A stretch of 64,000 bases of DNA. Origin: Bacillota bacterium (GTDB lineage: Bacteria > Bacillota > Desulfotomaculia > Desulfotomaculales > Nap2-2B). Both the position numbers and the translations under genes were made by a program. Positions within the stretch are counted from its first letter, which is position 1. Every line of letters begins with the position of its first letter. This document shows, piece by piece, positions 12,222 through 33,515 of the stretch. The notes under the pieces were generated by a model. The model did not search any database, was not told the DNA's origin, and saw nothing but the letters and a program-made list of their open reading frames with translations. The stretch covers positions 3,526 through 67,525 of the forward strand of contig JBFLZY010000005.1 in assembly GCA_040755975.1 (NCBI GenBank), read 5' to 3'.

Positions 12222-12980
12222 ATGGGGGAATTTTCCGGCAAGGTGGCGATTGTTACGGCCGCGGCAGGCGCCGGGATCGGCCAGGCCGTAGCGAGAAGCT
12301 TCGCGCGCGAAGGGGCGCACGTAATCGTCAGCGACGCGCACGCCAAAAGGCCCTTCAGCGTGGCCGAGGAAATAACCAGGGAGTACGGGGTCAGGGCGGT
12401 GGGCAGGCAATGTGACGTCCGGGACCGCGGCCAGGTAGAGGAAATGGTCCGGACGGCCATGGAGGAATGGGGCAAAATCGATATTCTGGTTAATAACGCC
12501 GGGATAGACAGGCCCGCACCGGTCTGGGAAATGGACGACGAAACGTGGGACCTGGTGATCGACGTCAATCTCAAAGGCGTTTTCAACTGTTGCCGCGCCG
12601 TACTTCCCGTAATGATGGAACAAAAGCAGGGAAAAATAGTCAACCTTTCTTCCGTTGTCGCCTGGCTGGGGGGCAAAGAGGAAGGGGCGGCCTACGTTGC
12701 CGCCAAGGCGGGAATCCTGGGTTTAACCAGAGCACTCGCCCACCAGGTTGGGGAATACAACATCAACGTTAATGCGGTGGCGCCGGGGTTAATCTATAAT
12801 CCTTTTTTAGGCAAAGTGAGACCTCCGGCCTATTTTGAAGATGTAAGAAAACAGACTGTCCTGGGCAGGATGGGCACCCCCCAGGACGTGGCCAACGCCG
12901 TTTTATTTTTATGTTCGGAAAAGGCGGCATATGTTACCGGTGCCTGCCTGTGCGTGAGCGGCGGCTGGTACATGTACTAA
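12222..12980 (+). CDS. SDR-family oxidoreductase (FabG-like 3-oxoacyl reductase)
   Basis: TAAAGAGIGQA cofactor motif, NNAG, and YVAAK (YxxxK) active site. Confidence 0.85.
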   Translation: MGEFSGKVAIVTAAAGAGIGQAVARSFAREGAHVIVSDAHAKRPFSVAEEITREYGVRAVGRQCDVRDRGQVEEMVRTAMEEWGKIDILVNNAGIDRPAPVWEMDDETWDLVIDVNLKGVFNCCRAVLPVMMEQKQGKIVNLSSVVAWLGGKEEGAAYVAAKAGILGLTRALAHQVGEYNINVNAVAPGLIYNPFLGKVRPPAYFEDVRKQTVLGRMGTPQDVANAVLFLCSEKAAYVTGACLCVSGGWYMY

Positions 12981-13055
12981 TGTTTTGGCGCCAATCCAGG
13001 CTGCCCGAAAGGTTGCCGCGTGAACCTTTAAATTTAACGAAAAAAGCCCGTTGTT

Positions 13056-13976
13056 CTAAAAACTGTGCGCCGCCCCCACCAGTTCATTAATGTCCCCGAT
13101 CCCGTTCTCCTCCAGATAACGTTCAATCCCTTTCACTATTTCGATAGTCGCCCGGGGGTTGAGAAAATTAGCCGTGCCTACCGCCACCGCCCTGGCTCCG
13201 GCCATAATGAATTCGATGGCGTCAGCGGCGCAGGCAATTCCACCCATACCGATCAGGGGTAGTTTTACCGCCCGGTAAACCTCCCAGACCGCCCGCACGG
13301 CCACCGGCCGGATGGCCGGGCCCGAAAGGCCCCCGGTAATATTCCCCAGGACCGGACGGCGCCGGTAAATATCTATCGCCATACCAGACAGAGTGTTGAT
13401 CAGGGAAAGGGCGTCCGCGCCTGCTTCGGCCACCGTTTTGGCCATCCCGGTAATACTGGTGACATTCGGGGAAAGTTTCACGATTACGGGCAGGTCAGCC
13501 GCCCTCTTCACCGCCCGCGTCACTTCTGCAGCGCCCAAAGGGTCGACCCCGAACTGCAGGCCGCCTTGTTTCACATTCGGGCAGGATATGTTGAGCTCGA
13601 GAGCAGATACACCGTTTGCCCCGGCGAGCTTTTCAGCCGCGGCAACGTACTCCTCGATGGTGTTTCCCGCAATACTGACTATTACCGGGGTTGAAAACTG
13701 CCGCAAATAAGGGAGGTGTTCGCCCAAAAAGCGCTCGACTCCAGGGTTTTGCAAACCAATGGAGTTTAAGATGCCGGCCGGGGTCTCGACAATCCGGGGA
13801 GGCGAGTTGCCCTCCCGGGGTTTTAAGGTAAGGCTTTTGACGACAACTGCCCCCAGCCTGTTCAAATCAACAAAAGGGGTGTACTCGGCGCCGAAACCGA
13901 AGGTGCCCGAGGCAGTCAGAACGGGATTTTTTAATTTCAGGCCGGCAATTTCCACGGTTAAACTTGGTTTCCTCAC
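13056..13976 (-). CDS. pyrD: dihydroorotate dehydrogenase B (NAD+), catalytic subunit
   Basis: 306 aa with [14 protein letters not shown] and GGI...A.D...F..AGA motifs. It lies directly downstream of pyrK. Confidence 0.9.
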
Positions 13977-14068: not shown

Positions 14069-14878
14069 TTACCCAAAATCTTGCCAGACCACTTCGCGGG
14101 CTTTAAAAACAGGTCCTTCCAGGCAAACGCGGCGATAAGAAACATCCTGACCCTTTTTATCCCGCATTTTGCAAACGCAGGAAAGGCAGGCGCCAACACC
14201 GCAGCCCATCCGCTCCTCCAGGGAAATTTCACCGTCCACCCCGTACTGCTCCAAAAGCGAGGCAACAACCTTTAGCATGGCCGCGGGGCCGCAGGCATAA
14301 ACGATCTCCACTTTCTTCTCCGCCAAAAGCTTCGCCAGCAGTTCCGTCACCGGCGCCCGGTGTCCGTAAGAGCCGTCATCGGTTGCCGCCAGAACGGCGG
14401 CCTTGCCGGCCAACTCCCGGACCTCACTGGCCAGAAACAATTCTCCCGCCGTGCGCGCCCCCAGCAAAACGTCCGGGGAATTGCCCGCACCGGCAAGCGT
14501 TTGCAATAGAAAATACAGGGGGGCGATCCCGATTCCCCCCGCCACCAAAGCAACGTTCTGACCGGCGGCGGGAAGGGTAAACCCCCGCCCCAGAGGCCCG
14601 ATGAGATCCAGCAAATCACCTTTCTTTTTTTGAGCCAGCAGCCGGGTGCCCCGGCCAACCACCCGGTAAAGCAGAGCAATCTCGCCGGTCCTTTGGTTGA
14701 CCGCGTGGACGCTGAAGGGACGCCGCAACAAAGGCTCCAGCCCGGGATTTATCCTGACGTGCAAAAATTGTCCGGGCCTGGCCAAGCCGGCAATTTCCGG
14801 AGAGATAAAGGATATCCGGTAGCAATCAGCAGCCAGCTTTTCCTGCCGCGAAATTTCCACCGCTGGAAAATACCTCAT
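14069..14878 (-). CDS. pyrK: dihydroorotate dehydrogenase electron-transfer subunit
   Basis: FAD/NAD-binding ferredoxin-reductase fold (RPFSV, GGIGIAP) and a C-terminal 2Fe-2S motif [11 protein letters not shown]. Confidence 0.9.
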
Positions 14879-15476: not shown

Positions 15477-15971
15477 ATGAAGTTTCGCAGATCGTTCTTC
15501 GGCTTTAAGCCGCGGGAGGTGATTACCGCCATTGAGCAAATGGATGCCGGTTACCAGGAGAAGATCGCTCAACTGGAAAAAGAAATCGAGCACGTCCAGG
15601 GGATTTTGACCGAGACTGAGCAGGAAGCAGGGCAACTGAGGAAGCAACTTTCAGAATACGAGGAACAGAAAGCGCTGATTTCCGAAATTTTAATCAAAGC
15701 CCACCAGGAAGCCCGGCAAATTGAAGCCGAAGCAAGGGAAAACGCCCGTGCGGCTCTAGAGCAGGTAAATGCCCAGATCCGCGTCAAGGAGCAGGAGTTG
15801 AGCGTACTCAAAGCCAGGGTTGAAAAGTTCAAGGAAGAATTTAAAGAGGTGCTCGAGCGCTACCGTTACTCGCTGGAGAATTTTCCCGGCACCGGCGAGG
15901 AAAAACAGGCAACCGTCTTTTTGCTTAAGGACTCCAGGCAGGCCGCCTCTTCCCAGACAGGAGGAAAGTAG
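15477..15971 (+). CDS. DivIVA-domain coiled-coil protein, 164 aa
   Basis: N-terminus MKFRRSFFGFKPREVITAIEQMD is DivIVA-like, followed by heptad-rich E/K/Q sequence. RBS GGGGGAAAC upstream. Confidence 0.8.
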   Translation: MKFRRSFFGFKPREVITAIEQMDAGYQEKIAQLEKEIEHVQGILTETEQEAGQLRKQLSEYEEQKALISEILIKAHQEARQIEAEARENARAALEQVNAQIRVKEQELSVLKARVEKFKEEFKEVLERYRYSLENFPGTGEEKQATVFLLKDSRQAASSQTGGK

Positions 15972-16075
15972 CCATTAGCGGTCGCGCGCGGGAACACGAG
16001 TTAAAACAGGAGCTGGCCCGCCTGCAAACAAGGCTGGCCCAAAAAAGAGACGAGGTAGAGGAGCTAAGAAAAGAT

Positions 16076-19000
16076 TTGCGGAACCGGGAAGCGGAACTGG
16101 CAGGGGCTTCCGGAGCAGTGGAGCACGCCCGCAAGCTGGCTGCAGAAGTAACGGCCGCGGCTTCCGCCAGGGCACACACTGCCGCCAGGGAGCTGAATAA
16201 AACCCTGGAAGAGCCGATGGCTTATTTGTCTCAACTAAACGGCGAGATCGACGCACTGAAAAAAGAGATGTCCTTACTGGAGCAGATTACCGGCCAGGCC
16301 GGATCTCCTAAAGAAACGGCCGCTGCAGGAGGTGTCCGCAAATCCGGGGAACCCCAGAACCCGCCTCATTCAACAGGTCCTTTAGTTTCTTGTTACCTCA
16401 TCCGGCTGGTCGCTTTTTTAAACGCAAGGCACTTCCTGGTTACCAAATCACGTAAAGGATCGGTTCACGCCCACTCCTGGCAGTTCCAGGTAGAAACCGA
16501 GGTTCCTTACGGGGAAGAATTTTTCGTCATGTTCAGGGAACTTCAGGAGAAAATCCAGCAGGCGCTGGCCCCCTTCGAAAATACCCTGTTAAACGAAAAA
16601 AGCCCCTTTGACAAAATACCGCCGGTGACGGAAAATATCGGCGCATATTTCTACCAGGTCCTGAGCAAGGAACTGGAAGGGTTGGGAGTCCGGCTGCGGA
16701 AGCTGACGGCGTGGGAGTCGCCCATAAAAGGGGTGGAAGTTTCCGGGAAGCTGCCGGGGTACATCTGCCCCGTGCTGGAGGGTGCCGGAAAGACCGGAGA
16801 CCCTCCGGAAACCGAAAAGGCGGCTGCGGAAGCCGCCGCTTCCCGGGCGGCGGCACACGAAGGTCAAGACTTGAAACTCTCTGCCGCCGGAACGGCGGCG
16901 GAGAAAGAACTCACTTCCCCGGAAGCGCGCTCATACCCGCCGGTGCAGTACGTCGCGGCGGCCTGTTTAATTCTCGGGGCGGCCCTGCTTGCCTACCACC
17001 GGATCCTTTTTGCCCCGCCCCAAGCGCTATGCCCTTGGGGATCGGACACCTGGGGACACCTCTACAAAGCGGAGTTCCTGGCCGGCGAGATAGGGAAGGG
17101 AAACCTTTACCCGTCGTTGTCGGCCCAATGGTACAACGGCTGCCAGCCCTTCCGTTACTGGGCGCCGTTATCCTATTATCTTGTTGCAGCCGTAAAAAGT
17201 TGGGCGGCAAACGTTTTTCTGGCCGGAAACATTTACTTTTTCCTTTGCGCCTTCCTGGGAGGGCTGGGGTGGCTCCTTCTGGCCGGAAAACTCGGCCTCT
17301 GGCCGGCGGCCCTGGCCGGGGCAGCCTGGATCTTTTGGCCGGATAACCTCCGTGTAGCCTTTTCCGAGGGCAACCTGCCGCGGGTTGCCGCCACGGCGCT
17401 TTTGCCGTTTCTCTTCGCCTTCTTTCTTCGAACCCTGGAAGAAAGGGGCCGCCTGCGGGAACCGGCGTTTTTTGTTGCGCTTACCCACGGCGTGATCCTT
17501 TGCCACGCCATGATAGGGGCCGTCTACATAACCTCCCTTTCGGCCTTTTCTCTTCTGCTCTTTCTCTTCGGCGGCTGCTCCCTGGCAGGGGTTCTGAGGG
17601 GGGCGGCGGCCCTGGCGGCGGGAGTGGCAACCTCGGCCTGGTGGCTTCTGCCGTCCCTAAAGGGCGGCCTGGCGGAAATGGGCCGGGAAGCAGCCTCCGG
17701 GGGTATCCAGTTTATTCCGGCCGCCATCTCTTTTAACCCGCTGGCCCGGTTCGCCGACGCGGAAGTCTTTTACTGGAGCTTTGCAACGGTAATCATCGCT
17801 CTGGCAATCCTCTGGAAATGGCGGACGAGGCCGCCGTGGGTCAAGGGGGTTTTCACGCTGGGAATTTTACTGGTGCTCATTACTATCCCCGCCTTCGAAC
17901 CGCTCTACAGGCTGCTCCCCCTTCACCACCTTCTCTGGCCGCAACGCTTTTCAAGCGTTGCCGGGCTGGCCTTCCTGGCGGGCGGGTTTGCGGTGGCGGC
18001 CAGGGGCAGGGAAAAGGGGCGCCTATTCAAGCGGCTGGCCGGAGGAATCCTCCTGCTCGCCATCTCCGGGGTTATCCTGCTGGACGGTTCCCTTTCCGCC
18101 CGCCTGCTGGCAGTCGCCCGCCCCGAGCCCCGCCTCATAGTCCAGGCGGCAGACAGGCTAAAGGAGGTGCCCGGCTGGAAGGTCGCCACTTTGGATTTGA
18201 GTCAGCTCGGTTCTTCCCCGGCCTACTATTTTTCTGCCCGCTCCGGGCGGGAGCAGGTATTCGGCTGGGCCTGGCAGGGGGCCGTCACGGCCCAAAACAT
18301 CATGCTTTTAAACACCTCTTTCGAATTCGGCCACTACCCTTTTTTGTTCCGGTCGCTCCTATTCCTGGGCGCCACCGACCTCGTGGCGAAAGAAGACCTG
18401 GTTAAAGATCCCGGTTCTTTTGAAAAGCTGGCCGGGGCCGCGGGTTACCAAAAACTTTCCTCGGCCGGCGGGATCGGCCTGTGGCACGGGAGGGCAAACG
18501 GCCCCTACCTGATAATCAAAAAAGACCGCGGCCTTGCGGTGGGGAAGCACGCCAGCATATACGCCCTCCAGTTCCCGGCCCTGGAGATCGGCCGCAGCGT
18601 TTATATAGACGACTACACCCCCGAGGAGCTGGCGCGCCACCCCGTGCTCATCCTCTCCGGCGCCTCCTGCCATTCCCGGGAAAGGGCCGAAAGGCTGGTC
18701 GTGGACTACGCGAAAGGAGGAGGCAGGGTCGTCGTCGACCTCACCGGCTTTCCGCCGGACGTCTGGAGCCGGCAGCCGAAGTTCCTGGGCGTTTACGGCG
18801 AGGAAATAACCCTCGCCGGGGAGATCAAAACCCGCAGCGACGGCCGCTCCCCGCAGTTCGCCCCCTTCGCCGGGGAGTTTCAGGCGTGGAAGTGCTACGC
18901 ACCCCACGGCCTGGACGAGGTGGACCTCGCGGCCGATTACTTCAACAAAGAAGTTGCCCTGTGGGGGTATAAAAACGTCGGGGGTTCCAAGATCGGCTTT

Positions 19001-19423
19001 TTGGGCTTGAACCTGGCGTACCACGCTTACCTCACCGGGGACCCCGCGGCAAGAAAAATGCTGGCGGATGTTACCGGACTGGCGGAGGAATTCAGCCCTC
19101 CCGAAATCGTTCCCCTGGAAGAATACCAGGTTAAGGATAATGGATATTTAATCACTTATGTGCTGGAGCGCGAGGTGCGGGCAGTCATCCCTGTGGCCGC
19201 CCTGGAAGGGATGCAGGCGGAGGTTGACGGCGAGCCGGTTCCCCTGGAAAAATTCGAGAACCTCGTCCTCGTGAAGCTGCCCGCCGGGCGCCACTTCCTG
19301 GATCTAACCCTCAAAGAGCCGCCGGTCTACGCCCTGGGCAGGGCGGTTTCCCTTACCAGCCTTGCCCTTGCGCCCGCTTCCCTCTTCTGGCTCTACGGAA
19401 GGAAAAGGAGGGAAAAGGTGTGA
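16076..19423 (+). CDS. giant membrane protein: coiled-coil N-terminus + QueD/PTPS-like domain + PTPS_related (GT-C-like) polytopic domain + large C-terminal domain + terminal TM anchor
   Basis: The TTG start at 16076 is the track start (GAGGAG 12 nt upstream). The frame is open from 15929, with an alternative ATT at 15974 lying 9 nt after GGAGG. Residues ~103-225 read NARHFL...SVHAHSWQFQVE...ENTLLN...PPVTENIG...LTAWESP, which follows the PTPS/QueD pattern (HGHSY, DHxxLN, PTxENIA, ET). About 13 hydrophobic helices follow. The C-terminus is ...SLALAPASLFWLYGRKRREKV. Confidence 0.8.
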   Translation: MRNREAELAGASGAVEHARKLAAEVTAAASARAHTAARELNKTLEEPMAYLSQLNGEIDALKKEMSLLEQITGQAGSPKETAAAGGVRKSGEPQNPPHSTGPLVSCYLIRLVAFLNARHFLVTKSRKGSVHAHSWQFQVETEVPYGEEFFVMFRELQEKIQQALAPFENTLLNEKSPFDKIPPVTENIGAYFYQVLSKELEGLGVRLRKLTAWESPIKGVEVSGKLPGYICPVLEGAGKTGDPPETEKAAAEAAASRAAAHEGQDLKLSAAGTAAEKELTSPEARSYPPVQYVAAACLILGAALLAYHRILFAPPQALCPWGSDTWGHLYKAEFLAGEIGKGNLYPSLSAQWYNGCQPFRYWAPLSYYLVAAVKSWAANVFLAGNIYFFLCAFLGGLGWLLLAGKLGLWPAALAGAAWIFWPDNLRVAFSEGNLPRVAATALLPFLFAFFLRTLEERGRLREPAFFVALTHGVILCHAMIGAVYITSLSAFSLLLFLFGGCSLAGVLRGAAALAAGVATSAWWLLPSLKGGLAEMGREAASGGIQFIPAAISFNPLARFADAEVFYWSFATVIIALAILWKWRTRPPWVKGVFTLGILLVLITIPAFEPLYRLLPLHHLLWPQRFSSVAGLAFLAGGFAVAARGREKGRLFKRLAGGILLLAISGVILLDGSLSARLLAVARPEPRLIVQAADRLKEVPGWKVATLDLSQLGSSPAYYFSARSGREQVFGWAWQGAVTAQNIMLLNTSFEFGHYPFLFRSLLFLGATDLVAKEDLVKDPGSFEKLAGAAGYQKLSSAGGIGLWHGRANGPYLIIKKDRGLAVGKHASIYALQFPALEIGRSVYIDDYTPEELARHPVLILSGASCHSRERAERLVVDYAKGGGRVVVDLTGFPPDVWSRQPKFLGVYGEEITLAGEIKTRSDGRSPQFAPFAGEFQAWKCYAPHGLDEVDLAADYFNKEVALWGYKNVGGSKIGFLGLNLAYHAYLTGDPAARKMLADVTGLAEEFSPPEIVPLEEYQVKDNGYLITYVLEREVRAVIPVAALEGMQAEVDGEPVPLEKFENLVLVKLPAGRHFLDLTLKEPPVYALGRAVSLTSLALAPASLFWLYGRKRREKV

Positions 19424-20103
19424 AGTCTTTTTTAAGCCGTCCGGCCGTTTTCGTCCTCCTCATCCTGTTCATCCTGGCCGGGCCGGCCTCCGCCGCCGAC
19501 AAAATCGTGATGGACGGCAAGTTCGGCGACTGGGACGGCCAGGCGCACATAACCGACCCCGCCGGCGACGGCGGGGTCGGCGGGGACGTCATGGTCTTCT
19601 ACTGGGCCACCAACCCCGGAGAATCCAACCTTTACTTCATGGTTGAGCGCGCTTTCCCGGGTTACAACCCCGTTTCCGTTTCGTACCAGCAAAACTTCGA
19701 CATCAACAACAACGGTTCTTACACGGACTCCGTCGACCGCTACGCGGTTATCACCTATTCCCCCACCCGGAGCAAGGGTTACGTGCAGGTGAGGGTCTAC
19801 CGCGCCGACGGCACCCTTATCGCCGGTTACGGCGGCAATTGGGGGGAAGGAACAAACAAGGGGCAAAACTACTGCGAGTACTACGTCACCATGACGTACC
19901 TGGGCATTGATCCGGGCCAGACCATCAGGATGTACCTGAGCAGCCAGGCAATGCCTTCCGACCGCTGCCCGGATACTGGCGACATCCAGTGGTCGCCCGT
20001 ACCCTTTATGGGTCCGGCGGGCCTGGCGGCTCTTCTAATCCTGAGCGCAACGCTCATCGTTATCTTCTTAAAGAAAAAGGGGGAGAAGGGTTGGCTTTCT
20101 TAA
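19420..20103 (+). CDS. secreted protein with C-terminal sorting-signal-like tail (motif + TM + basic cluster), candidate exosortase substrate
   Basis: The GTG start overlaps the upstream stop (GTGTGA), with AGGAGGG 6 nt upstream. Signal peptide VFVLLILFILAGPASA|ADK. C-terminus SPVPFMGP-AGLAALLILSATLIVIFL-KKKGEK. This resembles what NCBI names a Firmicu-CTERM sorting domain (memory). Confidence 0.75.
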   Translation: MKSFLSRPAVFVLLILFILAGPASAADKIVMDGKFGDWDGQAHITDPAGDGGVGGDVMVFYWATNPGESNLYFMVERAFPGYNPVSVSYQQNFDINNNGSYTDSVDRYAVITYSPTRSKGYVQVRVYRADGTLIAGYGGNWGEGTNKGQNYCEYYVTMTYLGIDPGQTIRMYLSSQAMPSDRCPDTGDIQWSPVPFMGPAGLAALLILSATLIVIFLKKKGEKGWLS

Positions 20104-20681
20104 TGGCGGCCGCTTTATTATGGGTAGTTGGGCTGGCATTTTTCAGGAGCCACCGCATCTGGGTGTTCTACTTCCCCTGGGGGGCGGTAGGCCTGACACT
20201 CCTCCTTATTCTCTTCCTGCGGGGCTCCCCGGTGGAATACCACCTGGAACGAGCAACGGCCCTTCTCCTCCAACAGGTAATGGGCCTTTTAAGCATCCCC
20301 GCCAGCGTCTTCGACCGCGCGGCGGGGATGGTGCTGGTCTTTATCGAGGCGGAGAAAAGCTGGACAGCCCTCGGTATCGATATAGAATGCTCGGGTCTCC
20401 TGGAGAGCTGCGTCTTTTTGGGGCTGGTCTTTTTTTACCCGGCCTTTTCCCTGCCGAAAAGAATCTTCTACGCTTCAACCGGGATTCTCGCCATCTACCT
20501 CATCAACCTGCTCAGGCTGTGCACCATCGTCTTTCTCATCAACGCATGCGGGCGGCAGGCCATTTACCTGGCCCACACCCTGGCCGGGCGGCTGGTGTTC
20601 TTTTTCCTGATCGTGGCCCTGTACTGGGCGATTTTCTCCCGGCCCACCCTGGCGGCCTTGAGGGGGCACCTGCATGACTGA
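20103..20681 (+). CDS. xrtG: exosortase/archaeosortase-family transpeptidase (XrtG-like), 192 aa
   Basis: The ATG at 20103 overlaps the upstream TAA (TAATG). About 6 TM helices. Ordered Cys96 (IDIECSG, codon 20388-20390), Arg138 (INLLRL) and His158 (LAHTLAGR) match the exosortase Cys/Arg/His signature. Confidence 0.8.
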   Translation: MAAALLWVVGLAFFRSHRIWVFYFPWGAVGLTLLLILFLRGSPVEYHLERATALLLQQVMGLLSIPASVFDRAAGMVLVFIEAEKSWTALGIDIECSGLLESCVFLGLVFFYPAFSLPKRIFYASTGILAIYLINLLRLCTIVFLINACGRQAIYLAHTLAGRLVFFFLIVALYWAIFSRPTLAALRGHLHD

Positions 20682-22020
20682 GCTCTTCCTTGAAAGGGCG
20701 GCAGGCGTCCTCTTTTTCTGGGGAGTCTTTTTGCTGGCTCCCCTGCTTATCGACCTCTCCACGGCAGTAATTCACCTCGCCGCCGTCCTCCTGTTCTTAT
20801 CGCCGTCCAGGAAGGGCCCGGCGGCGGAGGTGCCGGCCAACCCGCCCTTCATTTCCGTCGTGGTCCCCGTCTACAATTCTTCCGCCACCCTTTACCAGTG
20901 CCTGAACTCGATCGTCCACCAGACCTACCCGCAAAACCGGATGGAGATCATCTGCGTGGACAACGGCAGCACGGACGACAGCTTCAGCGTCTACAAGAAA
21001 TTCCAGCTCGACCACCCCGAGGCGGTAATTTCCTGGGCCAGCCTGTCCCGCCCCTGCAAGTCCTCGGCCTTGAACGCGGGGTTCTCCTTAAGCCGGGGTG
21101 TATACTTGGTCAATGTCGACTCGGATGTGCGGGTGGAAAAGGACGCGGTGAGGAAAATGATAGCGGCTTTTGAAAACGACCCGCTTCTCGTCGCCGCCAC
21201 GGGGGAAATCCGCATCGACAAGGACCTCGGTGCGGGGAAAAATTTAATAGACGTAATTCACTACTGTGAGGCCCTGGAGTACCTGATCGCTTTTTCCATC
21301 GGGAGGCGTTTTCAAACCCTCACCAACACCATCTTTACCCTTTCGGGGGCGCTTACCGCCTTCCGCCGGGAAGCCCTCTACTGCTCGCACCTGTACTCCA
21401 GCCGCACCCTCTCCGAGGACACGGACCTCTCCTACCGCCTGCGCGACGCCCGGAAGAAAGGCTGCCGGCTGGGCTGCGTGGCGGGGGCCGTGGCCTACGT
21501 AGAACCCATTTCCTCCCTGGACCGGCTCTACTCGCAAAGGGTGAGGTGGCAGCGGGGCGAACTGGAGGTGGCCTCTTTATACAGGTGGGACACCGGCTTT
21601 TTCACGGCCTTGACCCGCTTTACCGGGCGCATCCTGATCTCCGACCACACGTTGAGCCTTTCCCGGTTAACCTGGACCTTCCTGATCCCCTTCCTGTACC
21701 TTCTGGGCTACCCCCTGCCGCTGGTTCTGGCCGCCCTGGTGGGGCTCTACATCTGCTACCTGGCCCTGGACTTCATCTATTACCTGACCGCCTGCCGGTA
21801 CGTCCCTGCGGATTACCGGACCGGGCTGAAGAAGATATGGTGGGCGGTCTTCTTCCTTCCCGTGTTTCGCTGGACCGTCTACTGGTTCCGGCTGGCGGGA
21901 ATCATCCTGGCCCTCCAGGAGCCGGGCGCGTGGAGGGTGGAAAACCCCCTTCGGAAAGCAAAGGAAGCGCTCCGGCATCTAGTTCAAAAAGTGCACAACC
22001 CGGCTTCAAAAAACTGTTAA
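20674..22020 (+). CDS. membrane-embedded processive family-2 glycosyltransferase (polysaccharide synthase type)
   Basis: ATG overlaps the xrtG stop (ATGACTGA). Motifs VVVPVYN, DNGSTDDS, VDSDV, SEDTDLSYR and QRVRWQRG (QxxRW). TM helices flank the catalytic domain. Confidence 0.85.
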   Translation: MTELFLERAAGVLFFWGVFLLAPLLIDLSTAVIHLAAVLLFLSPSRKGPAAEVPANPPFISVVVPVYNSSATLYQCLNSIVHQTYPQNRMEIICVDNGSTDDSFSVYKKFQLDHPEAVISWASLSRPCKSSALNAGFSLSRGVYLVNVDSDVRVEKDAVRKMIAAFENDPLLVAATGEIRIDKDLGAGKNLIDVIHYCEALEYLIAFSIGRRFQTLTNTIFTLSGALTAFRREALYCSHLYSSRTLSEDTDLSYRLRDARKKGCRLGCVAGAVAYVEPISSLDRLYSQRVRWQRGELEVASLYRWDTGFFTALTRFTGRILISDHTLSLSRLTWTFLIPFLYLLGYPLPLVLAALVGLYICYLALDFIYYLTACRYVPADYRTGLKKIWWAVFFLPVFRWTVYWFRLAGIILALQEPGAWRVENPLRKAKEALRHLVQKVHNPASKNC

Positions 22021-22028
22021 ACTGAAGG

Positions 22029-22403
22029 GTGTTCTCTGTGAAAAACGAATTTCTCTGGTTGATCTCATCAATTCTCCTTGGCGCCATCGGTCAGTGCCTC
22101 CTTAAGCTTTCGGTGCTCAAGATGGACGGCGTTGTTTTCAATTGGCCGAATTTCCTCCCTGTTTTGGCGAAAATATTCACCAACAGCGGGATCATTTCAG
22201 GTCTAATCATTTTTGCCGCAAGTATGATCCTGTGGTTGAAAGTTCTCTCCGAAATGGAGTTAAGCAGAGCTTATCCGTCTGTGAGTTTGGCTTATTTAGT
22301 TGTTTTCTTTTTTTCCGTTCTTTTCCTGGGAGAAAAAGTTACCGCCTGGAAGTTGGCCGGACTGGCTTGCATCATTATTGGGATCTATTTTATTCACCAC
22401 TAG
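22029..22403 (+). CDS. 4-TM SMR/EamA-like small membrane protein (ArnE/ArnF-type flippase candidate)
   Basis: 124 aa with four hydrophobic helices and the motif SRAYPSVSLAYLVV typical of the EamA/SMR fold. It lies next to a polyprenyl-phosphate glycosyltransferase gene. Confidence 0.6.
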   Translation: MFSVKNEFLWLISSILLGAIGQCLLKLSVLKMDGVVFNWPNFLPVLAKIFTNSGIISGLIIFAASMILWLKVLSEMELSRAYPSVSLAYLVVFFFSVLFLGEKVTAWKLAGLACIIIGIYFIHH

Positions 22404-22501
22404 CACCAGATAGTTAGAAAAGCCCGTATCAAACAAATTTGGCGTCATATCGCCGTAAGTGCTCCTCCCCTCCCTCGAAAATAGAAACAATAACCATAAT
22501 T

Positions 22502-22609
22502 ATGCAGAAAACTTGGGATCGAGCACGAAAGGAACATGCCGCACTACGAAGATATCATCTATCTGTGCCGGAAGCCATGGCCTGCGGAACACCTTCACCA
22601 ATGAACTGA
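22502..22609 (+). pseudogene. possible remnant of a GT4-type glycosyltransferase C-terminus
   Basis: The short frame ...RRYHLSVPEAMACGTPSPMN* resembles the GT-B motif (G)LxxLEAMACGTPV. Only about 35 codons, no RBS. Confidence 0.2.
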
Positions 22610-22646
22610 AGATAGAGTTTAATCGTTAATCCTGGGGGTTTCAGTT

Positions 22647-23612
22647 ATGGAGGATAAAAGGTATGAACCATGTGAAGCGAAGGAATTTCCCACAATATCG
22701 ATCATTGTTCCTATGTACAACGAAGCCGAGAATATTGGACCGTTTTACGAGCGGCTTAGAAAGGTCCTCGATGAGATTGGCGAGCCCTATGAGATAATCT
22801 GCGTAAACGATGGTTCAACCGATGCAACTCTGGAGAAGCTCTTGAAGCTGCGAGAAAAAGACCAGAATGTAAAGGTTATCGACTTTTCGCGAAACTTCGG
22901 CAAGGAGATAGCCCTGACGGCAGGTCTTGACTTCTCCTCAGGGATGGCAATTATTCCCATCGATGCGGATCTTCAGGACCCGCCTGAGCTGATTCCGCAT
23001 CTCGTGGCTAAGTGGAAAGAGGGTTACGAGGTGGTTTATGCTACCCGGAAAAGCCGTCATGGAGAATCTTGGTTTAAAAAGCTGGCGGCTCATGCCTTTT
23101 ACCGGCTCGCAGAAAAGATTATGGATATCAACATCCCCCGCGATACCGGTGACTTCCGCCTGATGGACAGGTCTGTGGTGGAAGCCTTAAAAGCCCTGAG
23201 GGAAAGAAACCGCTTCATGAAAGGCCTGTTTGCCTGGGTGGGTTTTAAACAGGCTGCCGTCCATTATGAGAGAGAACCTCGCCATAAGGGAAAAACCAAG
23301 TGGAATTATTTTAAGCTCTGCAACCTTGCCATAGAAGGTATTACCTCTTTTAGTTATGTTCCTCTTCGGCTGGCTACCTATGTAGGGCTTGTGGTTGCAC
23401 TCCTGGCTTTTCTTTATGCTGCTTATATCGTAATGGTCACCCTGATTTATGGCAATCCTGTGCCTGGTTGGCCCTCACTGGTTACCATTGTATTATTTTT
23501 GGGTGGGGTGCAGCTTATCTGCACCGGGATCCTTGGTGAATACATCGGGCGGATCTATAACGAGGTAAAGCAAAGGCCCGTGTATATGGTCAGACAAAAA
23601 TGGGGGTTATAG
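22647..23612 (+). CDS. family-2 glycosyltransferase, polyprenyl-phosphate sugar transferase type (GtrB/CsbB/ArnC-like)
   Basis: ISIIVPMYNE, NDGSTD, IDADLQDPPE, plus two C-terminal TM helices. RBS GGGGG upstream. Confidence 0.85.
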   Translation: MEDKRYEPCEAKEFPTISIIVPMYNEAENIGPFYERLRKVLDEIGEPYEIICVNDGSTDATLEKLLKLREKDQNVKVIDFSRNFGKEIALTAGLDFSSGMAIIPIDADLQDPPELIPHLVAKWKEGYEVVYATRKSRHGESWFKKLAAHAFYRLAEKIMDINIPRDTGDFRLMDRSVVEALKALRERNRFMKGLFAWVGFKQAAVHYEREPRHKGKTKWNYFKLCNLAIEGITSFSYVPLRLATYVGLVVALLAFLYAAYIVMVTLIYGNPVPGWPSLVTIVLFLGGVQLICTGILGEYIGRIYNEVKQRPVYMVRQKWGL

Positions 23613-24016: not shown

Positions 24017-25870
24017 TTATCCTCGACAGTGCTCTACAAACCGTTTCACAAGCATATAACCGGCGCCGCGGCTTATTTTTCCTTCCTTGCGCACGTGCTC
24101 CAAAACAACGGGCGGCCAGAAGCCTTTTTCTTCCAGATGACGGTATGCCTGCTCAGGAGAAAGCTGGTGTCCCTGAAAGGCGCAAACTATTTCGGCAACT
24201 CTTTCCAGGGTTAGTTTTTTCCCCTGAGGATATTTTTTTATCGGCGGGGGATTAAGGCCGGCCAGACCGTTCATCCTCAGGACGGCCCAAAGGGAGTTTC
24301 GGAAGCTCTCCTCTTTCATTTCCTCGTCCAGCCGGTAGTTGTTGGTATAGCCGCCGGAAGCCAGCCCCCATTGCCGCATAAACTTAAGCCCCGGGTACGC
24401 CCAGTGATCTCCGGAAGGAATTGGCGCTTGAAAGGGTTGGAGTTCCATCCCCTGGGAATTGAGCCTGTTTTGCAACTCTTCAATAACTTCGCGAGAACTG
24501 CTCATTTCTTGAAAAGATAAATTTTTTTCAATACTTAAAGCCGCTGCAGCCCCGGCCGCCTGTCCGGTGGCCATCCCCACCGGAATCACCCTGGCGCTGC
24601 CGGCCGCCAGGGAGTCAAAGCTGGCCGAACGGCCCACCACCAGCAAGTTTTCCACCTCCCGCGGAACAAGGCACCGGAAGGGGATGGCGTATTTTGCCGG
24701 CTTGCCGATTACGTCTCCGGTGAAGTGCGGCCCGGTGGCCTGGATATCTACCGGATAGGAGCCAAAGGCGATGCGGTCCCGAAAATCCCTGTTTTCCATG
24801 ACGTCGTTGACGCTTAACCGGTAGAGGCCCTGGATGTGCCGGGAATCGCGGACGTACAACTCCGGGGCCGCGCCTTCCAGTTCCGCCCTCTCCAGACCCG
24901 GAACGTGTGTTTTGAGATAGGCGACCAGACGGGGGATTTCCTGTTCCGCTAAAAGGCGGGCCTCCTTCCGGGAATCCGGACTTAAAGGATCCACGCCAAA
25001 GATATGCAGGGCGTTTATTAAAACCCAATTACCCCGCAGGCGGCCGACATTTAAACCGCGCACGCCCAGGCGGCCGTTCGTGGGCCGGTACCCTTTCATG
25101 GTTTGCGCAAATCCCCAGGCGCTCAAATCATTGGCGCCGGTATGCGGCTCCCCGTGCTCCGCGATGGCCCGCCGCAGCCTCTGCCACTCCTCTTCCCCCA
25201 CGCCCCGCAACTTAAAAATAAGGGTGGCGGCGATGCGCTCATCCGTTCGGCCGCAGTCGCTCAAGCCCACGGTGCAGGGAACGCCCGCGGCGGCGGCGAG
25301 ATCCGCGTCCTGGGTGGCGTCGATGATCCGGCGGGCAAAAATCTCTTTTCTCTGCCCGGAAGGCAAAACCACCGCGATCCCCGTCAACACTGTTTTGCCT
25401 TCGGTTTTTTCAACCAAGGGTGTTATTTCCCGGACAGCAAGTAATTGTTCGAGCCTGTCTTCTTTGTCGAGCAAGGAACGAAAAGTCCTTGCCGCTGTTT
25501 CCAGGTCAAAAGAATCCCCTTCCACCTGTTGAAAAAACTCGAGAAAAATACCTTTATTCAGGATTTTCCGGTCCGGCCCGTAATTCATATCGATACTGTT
25601 CAGCCAGCCGCGAGTCATCAATCCGCCCGGCTCGGGGCGCGTGTCGATCAGCAGGGTGCGCAAGCCGTTGCGCGCTCCGGAAACGGCCGCCGCGATCCCT
25701 TCCGGATCGCTGCCGACCACCAAAAGATCGCAGATTGCCCCAGGCGGTAATTTTTTTTGCCCGGCGGAAAAAGAAGACGCGTTGCGCTGGTAAAAAAACC
25801 AGCCCAGCACCCACCCGGACAGAAAGAGAAATAAGAGAAGATAAAGAGCGGCTTTTTTCTGTAAAAGCAT
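24017..25870 (-). CDS. membrane-anchored FAD-dependent oxidoreductase (FAD_oxidored-type), 617 aa
   Basis: N-terminal TM (LYLLLFLFLSGWVLGWFFY), then DLLVVGSDPEGIAAAVSGARNGLRTLLID as the dinucleotide-binding fold. A C-terminal domain of ~150 aa has unknown type. Confidence 0.65.
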   Translation of the reverse strand: MLLQKKAALYLLLFLFLSGWVLGWFFYQRNASSFSAGQKKLPPGAICDLLVVGSDPEGIAAAVSGARNGLRTLLIDTRPEPGGLMTRGWLNSIDMNYGPDRKILNKGIFLEFFQQVEGDSFDLETAARTFRSLLDKEDRLEQLLAVREITPLVEKTEGKTVLTGIAVVLPSGQRKEIFARRIIDATQDADLAAAAGVPCTVGLSDCGRTDERIAATLIFKLRGVGEEEWQRLRRAIAEHGEPHTGANDLSAWGFAQTMKGYRPTNGRLGVRGLNVGRLRGNWVLINALHIFGVDPLSPDSRKEARLLAEQEIPRLVAYLKTHVPGLERAELEGAAPELYVRDSRHIQGLYRLSVNDVMENRDFRDRIAFGSYPVDIQATGPHFTGDVIGKPAKYAIPFRCLVPREVENLLVVGRSASFDSLAAGSARVIPVGMATGQAAGAAAALSIEKNLSFQEMSSSREVIEELQNRLNSQGMELQPFQAPIPSGDHWAYPGLKFMRQWGLASGGYTNNYRLDEEMKEESFRNSLWAVLRMNGLAGLNPPPIKKYPQGKKLTLERVAEIVCAFQGHQLSPEQAYRHLEEKGFWPPVVLEHVRKEGKISRGAGYMLVKRFVEHCRG

Positions 25871-33400: not shown

Positions 33401-33403
33401 TTA

Positions 33404-33437
33404 GCAAAAATGCCTGCTTACACCGGTAAGCAGGCAT
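33404..33437 (-). terminator. pyr leader attenuator terminator
   Basis: Minus-strand RNA AUGCCUGCUUACCGGUGUAAGCAGGCAU followed by UUUUU, about 15 nt before the pyrR ATG. Confidence 0.75.
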
Positions 33438-33467
33438 AGTATAGCCATCCTTTTAGCTTTCCTATGT

Positions 33468-33502
33468 TCCTTACCGGCCTCGCTGGACCGGGTTTAAAGG
33501 AT
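33468..33502 (-). promoter_or_regulatory. PyrR-binding stem-loop (anti-antiterminator)
   Basis: The RNA AUCCUUUAAACCCGGUCCAGCGAGGCCGGUAAGGA contains UCCAGCGAGGC. This is one mismatch from the UCCAGAGAGGC core known from Bacillus pyr leaders. Confidence 0.75.
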
Positions 33503-33515
33503 TTATTTCAGATAA

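Follow-up and report, generated by a model that had tools for sequence, protein, structure and literature searches.

The 64,000-nucleotide stretch of Bacillota DNA analysed here (contig JBFLZY010000005.1; the window, to which all coordinates refer) carries on its plus strand, at 16076..19423, an open reading frame (ORF) of 1115 residues that joins a coiled coil, a T-fold domain of the 6-pyruvoyl-tetrahydropterin synthase (PTPS)/QueD type and a membrane module of the GT-C glycosyltransferase fold. The encoded protein is probably a GT-C transferase of a lipid-linked-sugar glycosylation pathway that serves the glycan or the cargo of the exosortase XrtG, and its tethered cytoplasmic zinc module would not be a pterin enzyme. 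This is put forward as the best explanation of the observed folds, conservation and synteny, from which the donor, the acceptor, the topology and the catalytic or regulatory role of the T-fold are deduced. The fusion itself is not new; it is the usual and already catalogued architecture in related bacteria, since the PF10131 name 'PTPS_related', the 'domain' type of TIGR03112 and the PGAP product name all describe the fused form.

The ORF is present and translates as described in the initial annotation, and hidden Markov models, AlphaFold2 and Foldseek agree on the succession of coiled coil, QueD/PTPS fold and GT-C-like polytopic domain that was proposed there. With residues counted from the TTG codon at 16076, Pfam PF01242 (PTPS) was matched at residues 115-223 (E 5.5e-15, 55.8 bits, cut-off 22.4) and PF10131 at residues 359-983 (E 1.9e-144, 482.9 bits vs 26.4), the latter over model positions 1-621 of 621, and the NCBIfam model TIGR03112 was matched at residues 112-219 with 74.4 bits, against a curated cut-off of 69.35. 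The AlphaFold2 run, based on a 67-sequence alignment, gave a mean predicted local distance difference test score (pLDDT) of 87 and a predicted template modelling score of 0.75. In the model, the N-terminal long helix or coiled coil (residues 1-72; 16076..16291) appears as a single helix over residues 2-72, residues 74-100 are disordered, and a beta-alpha T-fold at residues 106-222 forms the PTPS/QueD-like domain of TIGR03112 type (residues 103-225; 16382..16750). An Ala/Glu/Pro-rich linker (residues 226-288; 16751..16939), with pLDDT <50 over residues 231-275, leads to the GT-C-fold membrane module (residues 289-680; 16940..18115), which is delimited by PF10131, Foldseek and topology. This is followed by a predicted extracytoplasmic domain composed of an alpha/beta part and a beta-sandwich (residues 681-1082; 18116..19321; pLDDT 94 when modelled separately) and by a transmembrane anchor with the basic cytoplasmic tail RKRREKV before the stop (19322..19423; final helix at residues 1083-1114). 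The membrane helices had been put at about 13; about 11 were counted in the module, plus the one C-terminal anchor.

The assignment of residues 100-230 to a T-fold/PTPS domain was upheld by PF01242 and TIGR03112 as well as by structure comparison, as the small domain matched the PTPS of P. horikoshii (2DJ6, PH0634) with a Foldseek TM-score of 0.84 and E. coli QueD (4NTK) with 0.81. Human and rat PTPS were matched too, and the scores for QueD/PTPS ranged from 0.74 to 0.84. The motifs quoted initially are real and conserved: the metal triad consists of H119 (16430-16432), H131 (16466-16468) and H133 (16472-16474), and the two conserved glutamates are E186 (16631-16633) in the PTxEN motif, here VTENIG, and E214 (16715-16717) in AWES. 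When conservation was scored in 60 homologues carrying the PTPS-like domain, each of the three histidines was found in 59, and E186, E214 and P216 in all 60. In a second alignment (A2), to which free-standing copies were added, H119, H131, H133, N173, F178, E186, E214 and P216 were all invariant.

In QueD and PTPS, a catalytic Cys four residues before the HxH motif and an Asp-His pair are needed for the chemistry. A profile alignment to P. aeruginosa PTPS/QueD, which was used to place these residues, put K127 at the Cys position, where Lys, Ala, Pro or Gln is found across the family, in accordance with the earlier remark that the catalytic Cys is missing; the position of the Asp-His pair is taken by E168-N169, with Glu-Asn replacing Asp-His across the 60 homologues. 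As judged from these alignments, the metal site and both glutamates are under selection and the proton-abstraction apparatus of PTPS/QueD is absent in the whole subfamily. It is reasonable to suppose that the T-fold domain is not a pterin or queuosine enzyme and serves the glycan system, because the Cys and Asp-His residues are lost, the score against the QueD equivalog TIGR03367 is far below threshold (26.9 bits, cut-off 89.25) and the linkage to XrtG is constant. The domain could be taken for a working QueD or PTPS, made for queuosine or pterin synthesis and only incidentally fused to a membrane protein, on the grounds of its PF01242 match and of the T-fold, the His3 zinc triad, the PTxEN glutamate and the C-terminal glutamate that it has in common with 4NTK, 2DJ6 and rat PTPS (1GTQ). 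However, it differs from these enzymes in the variable residues at the Cys position, in Glu-Asn for Asp-His, in its membrane tether and in its gene context, where XrtG and family-2 glycosyltransferase (GT2) genes are found rather than que or fol genes, and a role of this kind is considered highly improbable.

The signature of an invariant H, HxH, N, E and E-P is common to the fusion domain and the free-standing members of TIGR03112; many of the latter stand alone with 120-175 residues, whereas the domain studied here is part of an 1115-residue protein and comes after a coiled coil. A profile built from the PTPS-like domain only matched 1123 proteins at E <= 1e-5, and the best 120 of these matches were all free-standing, 120-175 residues long, several being labelled '6-carboxytetrahydropterin synthase'. 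This name is given in NCBI/UniRef to the free-standing TIGR03112-type proteins P0104, P0140, P0158, P0168 and P0205, which are without the catalytic Cys, and on proteins of this type the label is probably an over-annotation.

That the membrane part has a GT-C rather than a transporter fold, as had been suggested, is confirmed by its Foldseek matches to GT-C enzymes. Residues ~290-1080 matched, in the PDB, AftD (E 1e-9), yeast and human STT3, AglB, AftA, DPY19, ArnT and PglB, with E values from 1e-9 to 1e-5 and sequence identities of 9-14%. D324, H328, W352, Y353, R360 and other residues are invariant in 67 homologues. D324 (17045-17047) belongs to the invariant WGSDTWGH motif and lies directly after the first transmembrane helix (residues 289-311), which is also where AftD, STT3, AglB, ArnT and PglB carry an acidic residue, although the outer domains differ. 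PF10131 has been placed in the GT-C clan CL0111, with its function listed as unknown (PMC7801869). The protein shares with the PF10131/PGAP family the full-length model match, the PTPS plus PTPS_related architecture and the XrtG neighbourhood, and no architectural difference was seen; no other database sequence exceeds 75% identity to it. It is not a member of the YfhO family (PF09586, 11.7 bits vs 28.5); the match was confined to the C-terminal anchor region. It has in addition a cytoplasmic T-fold and an exosortase-locus setting. The C-terminal domain of ~400 residues matched, in a Foldseek search, non-catalytic alpha/beta and beta-sandwich domains of GH42, GH164 and GH29 glycosidases, ThuA-like proteins and the GIFT domain of IFT52; as modelled, it is of an accessory type and has no glycosidase catalytic barrel.

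No signal peptide was found before the 288 N-terminal residues. Lys and Arg are enriched in the C-terminal tail and in two short loops (581-588 and 643-653). The positive-inside rule predicts a cytoplasmic position for the coiled coil and the T-fold; D324, the extended first loop and the C-terminal domain of ~400 residues would lie outside, as is the case in other GT-C enzymes, so that the T-fold and the catalytic face of the GT-C module would be on opposite sides of the membrane. It had been proposed that the PTPS-like fold works physically on the glycosyltransferase; the analysis does not show this, and in the predicted arrangement the domain is cytoplasmic on a disordered tether of ~55 residues and the catalytic loop and C-terminal domain are outside.

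Another role that has been weighed for the T-fold is that of an oligomerisation scaffold or ligand sensor with no chemistry of its own, which would cluster or regulate the GT-C module, for example through a guanine- or pterin-like metabolite. T-folds always assemble as trimers or hexamers. Several features would suit such a role: a long N-terminal helix precedes the T-fold and a flexible tether follows it, a coiled-coil partner gene is found upstream in 24 of 77 loci, the catalytic Cys and Asp-His are lost, the homologue P0081 keeps the domain though its His triad is gone, and the pterin-anchoring glutamate of the PTxEN motif (E186) is kept. On the other hand, the three histidines and two glutamates do not vary among fused or free-standing copies, a degree of conservation seen more often in active metal centres than in scaffolds, and the purely structural or sensory role is regarded as possible but not favoured.

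The distribution of the architecture was studied in species-representative genomes, where 180 relatives were matched and 77 loci were retrieved and scored; locus counts were obtained by scoring the window proteins against the stop-to-stop ORFs of each locus. The PTPS-like and GT-C parts lie in one ORF in 60 of the 77 loci, 10 of which have a second, free PTPS-like gene, while in 11 they form adjacent, usually overlapping ORFs, in two they are apart and in four the contigs are truncated. Carriers of the locus include Peptococcaceae, Syntrophomonas wolfei, Pelotomaculum, Thermincola, Clostridium ljungdahlii, C. aciditolerans, Anaerosporobacter and Bacillus yunxiaonensis. A word-indexed search gave 86 homologues, about 70 of which are of 1000-1200 residues with PF10131 and PF01242; several database homologues carry the NCBI name '6-pyruvoyl-tetrahydropterin synthase-related protein', and most homologues have the N-terminal coiled-coil extension. 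In an exhaustive HMMER scan of 1.84 billion cluster representatives, 285 clusters were found at E <= 1e-30, in two length groups of about 800-850 and about 1000-1200 residues. The initial annotation had described the PTPS-like protein as a separate small gene of XrtG loci and had taken the fusion to be unusual; free copies are indeed abundant, but the fused form is the common one. These numbers also bear on the idea that two separate genes were joined artificially, by an assembly error or a frameshift. A single indel could fuse the overlapping ORFs of the 11 loci with adjacent genes, but one continuous ORF in 60 independent genomes, about 70 database proteins of the same architecture and a continuous linker of ~60 residues, with confident modelling on either side of it, make such an error hardly conceivable.

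Clostridial loci with a second, free-standing PTPS-like paralogue beside the fused one were noted (L051, L052, L059, L060, L062-L064, L067, L071, L073 and L074), and the free copies at L051 758-1393 and L067 7525-8184 end in a transmembrane helix of their own and are thus membrane-anchored. In L055, a soluble coiled-coil plus PTPS-like protein of 400 residues (12603-13802, minus strand) is encoded divergently from a GT-C gene that is without the PTPS domain, which shows that the cytoplasmic module can exist as a separate unit.

The fusion gene is embedded in a conserved series of plus-strand genes, in the order coiled-coil gene, PTPS+GT-C, cargo, XrtG and TIGR03111-like GT2, and the gene order is identical in the three closest relatives (L078-L080). 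The first of these genes (15477..15971) encodes a coiled-coil protein of 164 residues with a match to Pfam DivIVA (E 3e-4) below the cut-off, and a homologous ORF sits immediately 5' of the fusion gene in the 24 loci mentioned above and in L078-L080; when the PDB was searched with the sequence of this protein, the matches were all to coiled coils of a generic kind, for example keratin and the ATP synthase b subunit. XrtG (20103..20681; TIGR03110, 122-123 bits vs a cut-off of 102.75) is present in 71 of the 77 loci, and its ATG at 20103 overlaps the stop codon of the cargo gene. The XrtG-associated membrane GT2 (20674..22020; PF00535), whose TIGR03111-like counterparts were found in 68 loci, has TIGR03111 by far as its top match, full-length though slightly below the cut-off (354.2 vs 363.95 bits), and matches PgaC/IcaA, NodC and chitin-synthase models as well. 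Two further genes follow: a small EamA/ArnF-like membrane protein (22029..22403; ArnF 61.1 bits, cut-off 99; EamA 33.6, cut-off 28.2), a candidate flippase for lipid-linked sugars, and a PgfS/ArnC-like GT2 (22647..23612; PgfS 315.7 bits, cut-off 500; ArnC 196.7, cut-off 529), a candidate polyprenyl-phosphate sugar synthase. Near the GT-C gene, a PgfS-type GT2 was found in 45 of the 77 loci and an ArnF-like gene in 21.

The gene between the fusion gene and XrtG (19420..20103) encodes a probable XrtG cargo protein of 227 residues, with a signal peptide, a domain of ~170 residues and a C-terminal tail of IQWSPVPFMG, a transmembrane segment and KKKGEK. It overlaps the stop codon of the GT-C gene (GTGA) and lies directly upstream of XrtG. 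The Firmicu-CTERM model TIGR04145 gave 11.6 bits for this protein (cut-off 50), and homologues were found in 49 loci. A weak fucose-lectin-like match (E 0.018) was also seen. P0005 (from L080) has a cargo homologue (51% identity, E 4e-69) joined to the C-terminal end of its GT-C part, and a single stop-to-stop ORF holds both in L010 and L038; this connects the GT-C protein with the cargo or with what the cargo carries. In ~30 loci (among L001-L048), cargo and XrtG lie in one stop-to-stop ORF. The shared ORFs of L010, L038 and these ~30 loci may be real fusions or may result from overlapping stop and start codons.

The scheme of a GT-A enzyme, a flippase and a GT-C transferase is established in Gram-positive envelope glycosylation (PMC8035078; Pgf system, PMC5856776). 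The locus likewise has a GT-C fold, with a nearby GT2 and a small flippase-like protein as candidates for the other two parts, and the large outer domain followed by a last transmembrane helix is also alike. By analogy, the PgfS/ArnC-like GT2, or an equivalent encoded elsewhere in the genome, would make the polyprenyl-phosphate-sugar donor, which would be flipped by the small ArnF/EamA-like protein or its genomic equivalent. The GT-C module would then take the sugar from the polyprenyl phosphate and pass it, on the outside of the membrane, to what the XrtG system produces; the acceptor would be either the polysaccharide that the TIGR03111-like GT2 synthesises or the cargo protein of the neighbouring gene, which XrtG sorts. 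The T-fold would most likely be a zinc-dependent, oligomer-forming cytoplasmic module that binds or processes a pathway-specific ligand or precursor, and its fusion to, or encoding adjacent to, the GT-C would keep the two at a 1:1 ratio.

The choice of acceptor separates this general scheme from a narrower one, in which the GT-C glycosylates the XrtG-sorted cargo in the manner of Pgf protein O-glycosylation, rather than a polysaccharide. A precedent is provided by the Pgf protein glycosylation of S. mutans (PMC5856776), and the PgfS-like GT2 in the locus (315.7 bits), the overlap of the cargo gene with the GT-C stop codon and the cargo-GT-C fusions of P0005, L010 and L038 point in the same direction. 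Nevertheless, no obvious Ser/Thr-rich region was seen in the cargo, and both the constant membrane GT2, with its likeness to PgaC/IcaA, NodC and chitin synthase, and the glycosidase-accessory-like C-terminal domain fit a glycan acceptor; glycosylation of the cargo itself is considered possible, though not favoured.

Several points weigh against the proposal of a lipid-linked-sugar GT-C transferase with a non-pterin zinc module. The PgfS-like and ArnF-like genes score under their equivalog cut-offs, are absent near the fusion gene in many relatives and have a G+C content of 0.44-0.48, compared with about 0.60 for the core operon. The distant homologue P0081, which is without the His triad, indicates that the metal site is not universally required. 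The topology is based on the positive-inside rule and fold analogy, and no experimental study of any PF10131 or TIGR03112 member was found in the literature searched.

The translation start of the fusion gene was also reconsidered. The frame is open from 15929, and a Shine-Dalgarno sequence (GGAGG, 15960-15964) immediately after the stop of the upstream gene is followed, after 9 nucleotides, by an ATT codon (15974-15976), the whole element spanning 15960..15976 on the plus strand. The stretch of 34 codons that precedes TTG 16076 has coiled-coil character, and its protein sequence is conserved in L078 and L079. In these two closest orthologues, TTG 16076 corresponds to an internal Leu codon (CTC), which makes it an unlikely start, and gene callers picked different internal starts. 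The arrangement of a Shine-Dalgarno sequence, 9 nucleotides and an in-frame ATT, or ATC in five loci, was found at at least 14 of 19 junctions examined. Besides the window, it was noted in L001, L002, L007, L008, L011, L012, L015, L016, L023, L027, L044, L046 and L078-L080; at the junctions examined, no canonical start occurs for up to 85 codons after the ATT or ATC. Other family members have ATG at a comparable position. A start at 15974 would give a protein of 1149 residues with HxH at residue 165, and in full-length relatives HxH is found at 165-180. From these comparisons, ATT 15974 is probably the true start, and the N-terminal coiled coil probably extends upstream to this position.

A frameshift or -1 slippage that would join 15477-15971 to the large ORF was set aside. 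In the window and in L078-L080, the large ORF lies in the -1 frame with respect to the upstream ORF, and a GGA-AAG/AAA-stop motif is present, but other loci show relations of 0, +1 or +2 and the Shine-Dalgarno sequence with 9 nucleotides and ATT persists where the upstream stop is 80-390 nucleotides away.

The base composition of the region deserves mention, since 71% G+C had been reported at 17561-17660 and this value is exact. The whole ORF 16076-19423 has 60.7%, the window 54.3%, and the entire 16-22 kb operon 58-63%; the idea that the fusion gene alone is foreign by G+C was rejected for this reason. The 22-24 kb region has a G+C content of 0.45, with a gap of 244 bp between the ArnF-like and PgfS-like genes, and these two genes (22029-23612) may be a separately acquired module. 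A promoter and terminator scan of 14.8-24.2 kb gave nothing that would define the operon.

On either side of the locus, the window contains a pyrimidine cluster on the minus strand (13056-33504), composed of a PyrR RNA element (33403-33504), pyrR, pyrB, pyrC, carA and carB (to 26031) and completed by pyrK (14069-14878) and pyrD (13056-13976). It is interrupted by ~11 kb with the plus-strand XrtG locus and a gene for an FAD oxidoreductase (24017-25870). In the closest relative, L079, the downstream flanking genes differ from those of the window.

The main value of the analysis is corrective, in that what seemed a surprising fusion is the architecture that databases already name and that is standard in the XrtG-associated GT-C family of anaerobic Bacillota. 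The stand-alone TIGR03112 domain is routinely mis-named 6-carboxytetrahydropterin synthase, and the conserved ATT/ATC start means, apparently, that public gene models of the fusion family are systematically truncated at the N-terminus. The conserved zinc site, with no PTPS/QueD catalytic residues, would point to some other chemistry, or to sensing, on the cytoplasmic side of a glycan pathway linked to an exosortase. A more speculative extension, held with considerable reserve, is that the TIGR03112 T-fold is a distinct and still active subfamily (His3-Zn and two Glu, no Cys) that performs or senses a cytoplasmic step specific to the XrtG glycan and is held on the GT-C by fusion, and that, separately, the family is translated from a conserved AUU/AUC codon exactly 9 nucleotides after a strong Shine-Dalgarno sequence. 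If this were true, the active T-fold might, for example, act on a nucleotide-sugar or a second messenger of guanine- or pterin-like character, and the conserved AUU/AUC start would mean that translation of an envelope glycosyltransferase is deliberately throttled or is under control of the IF3 type.

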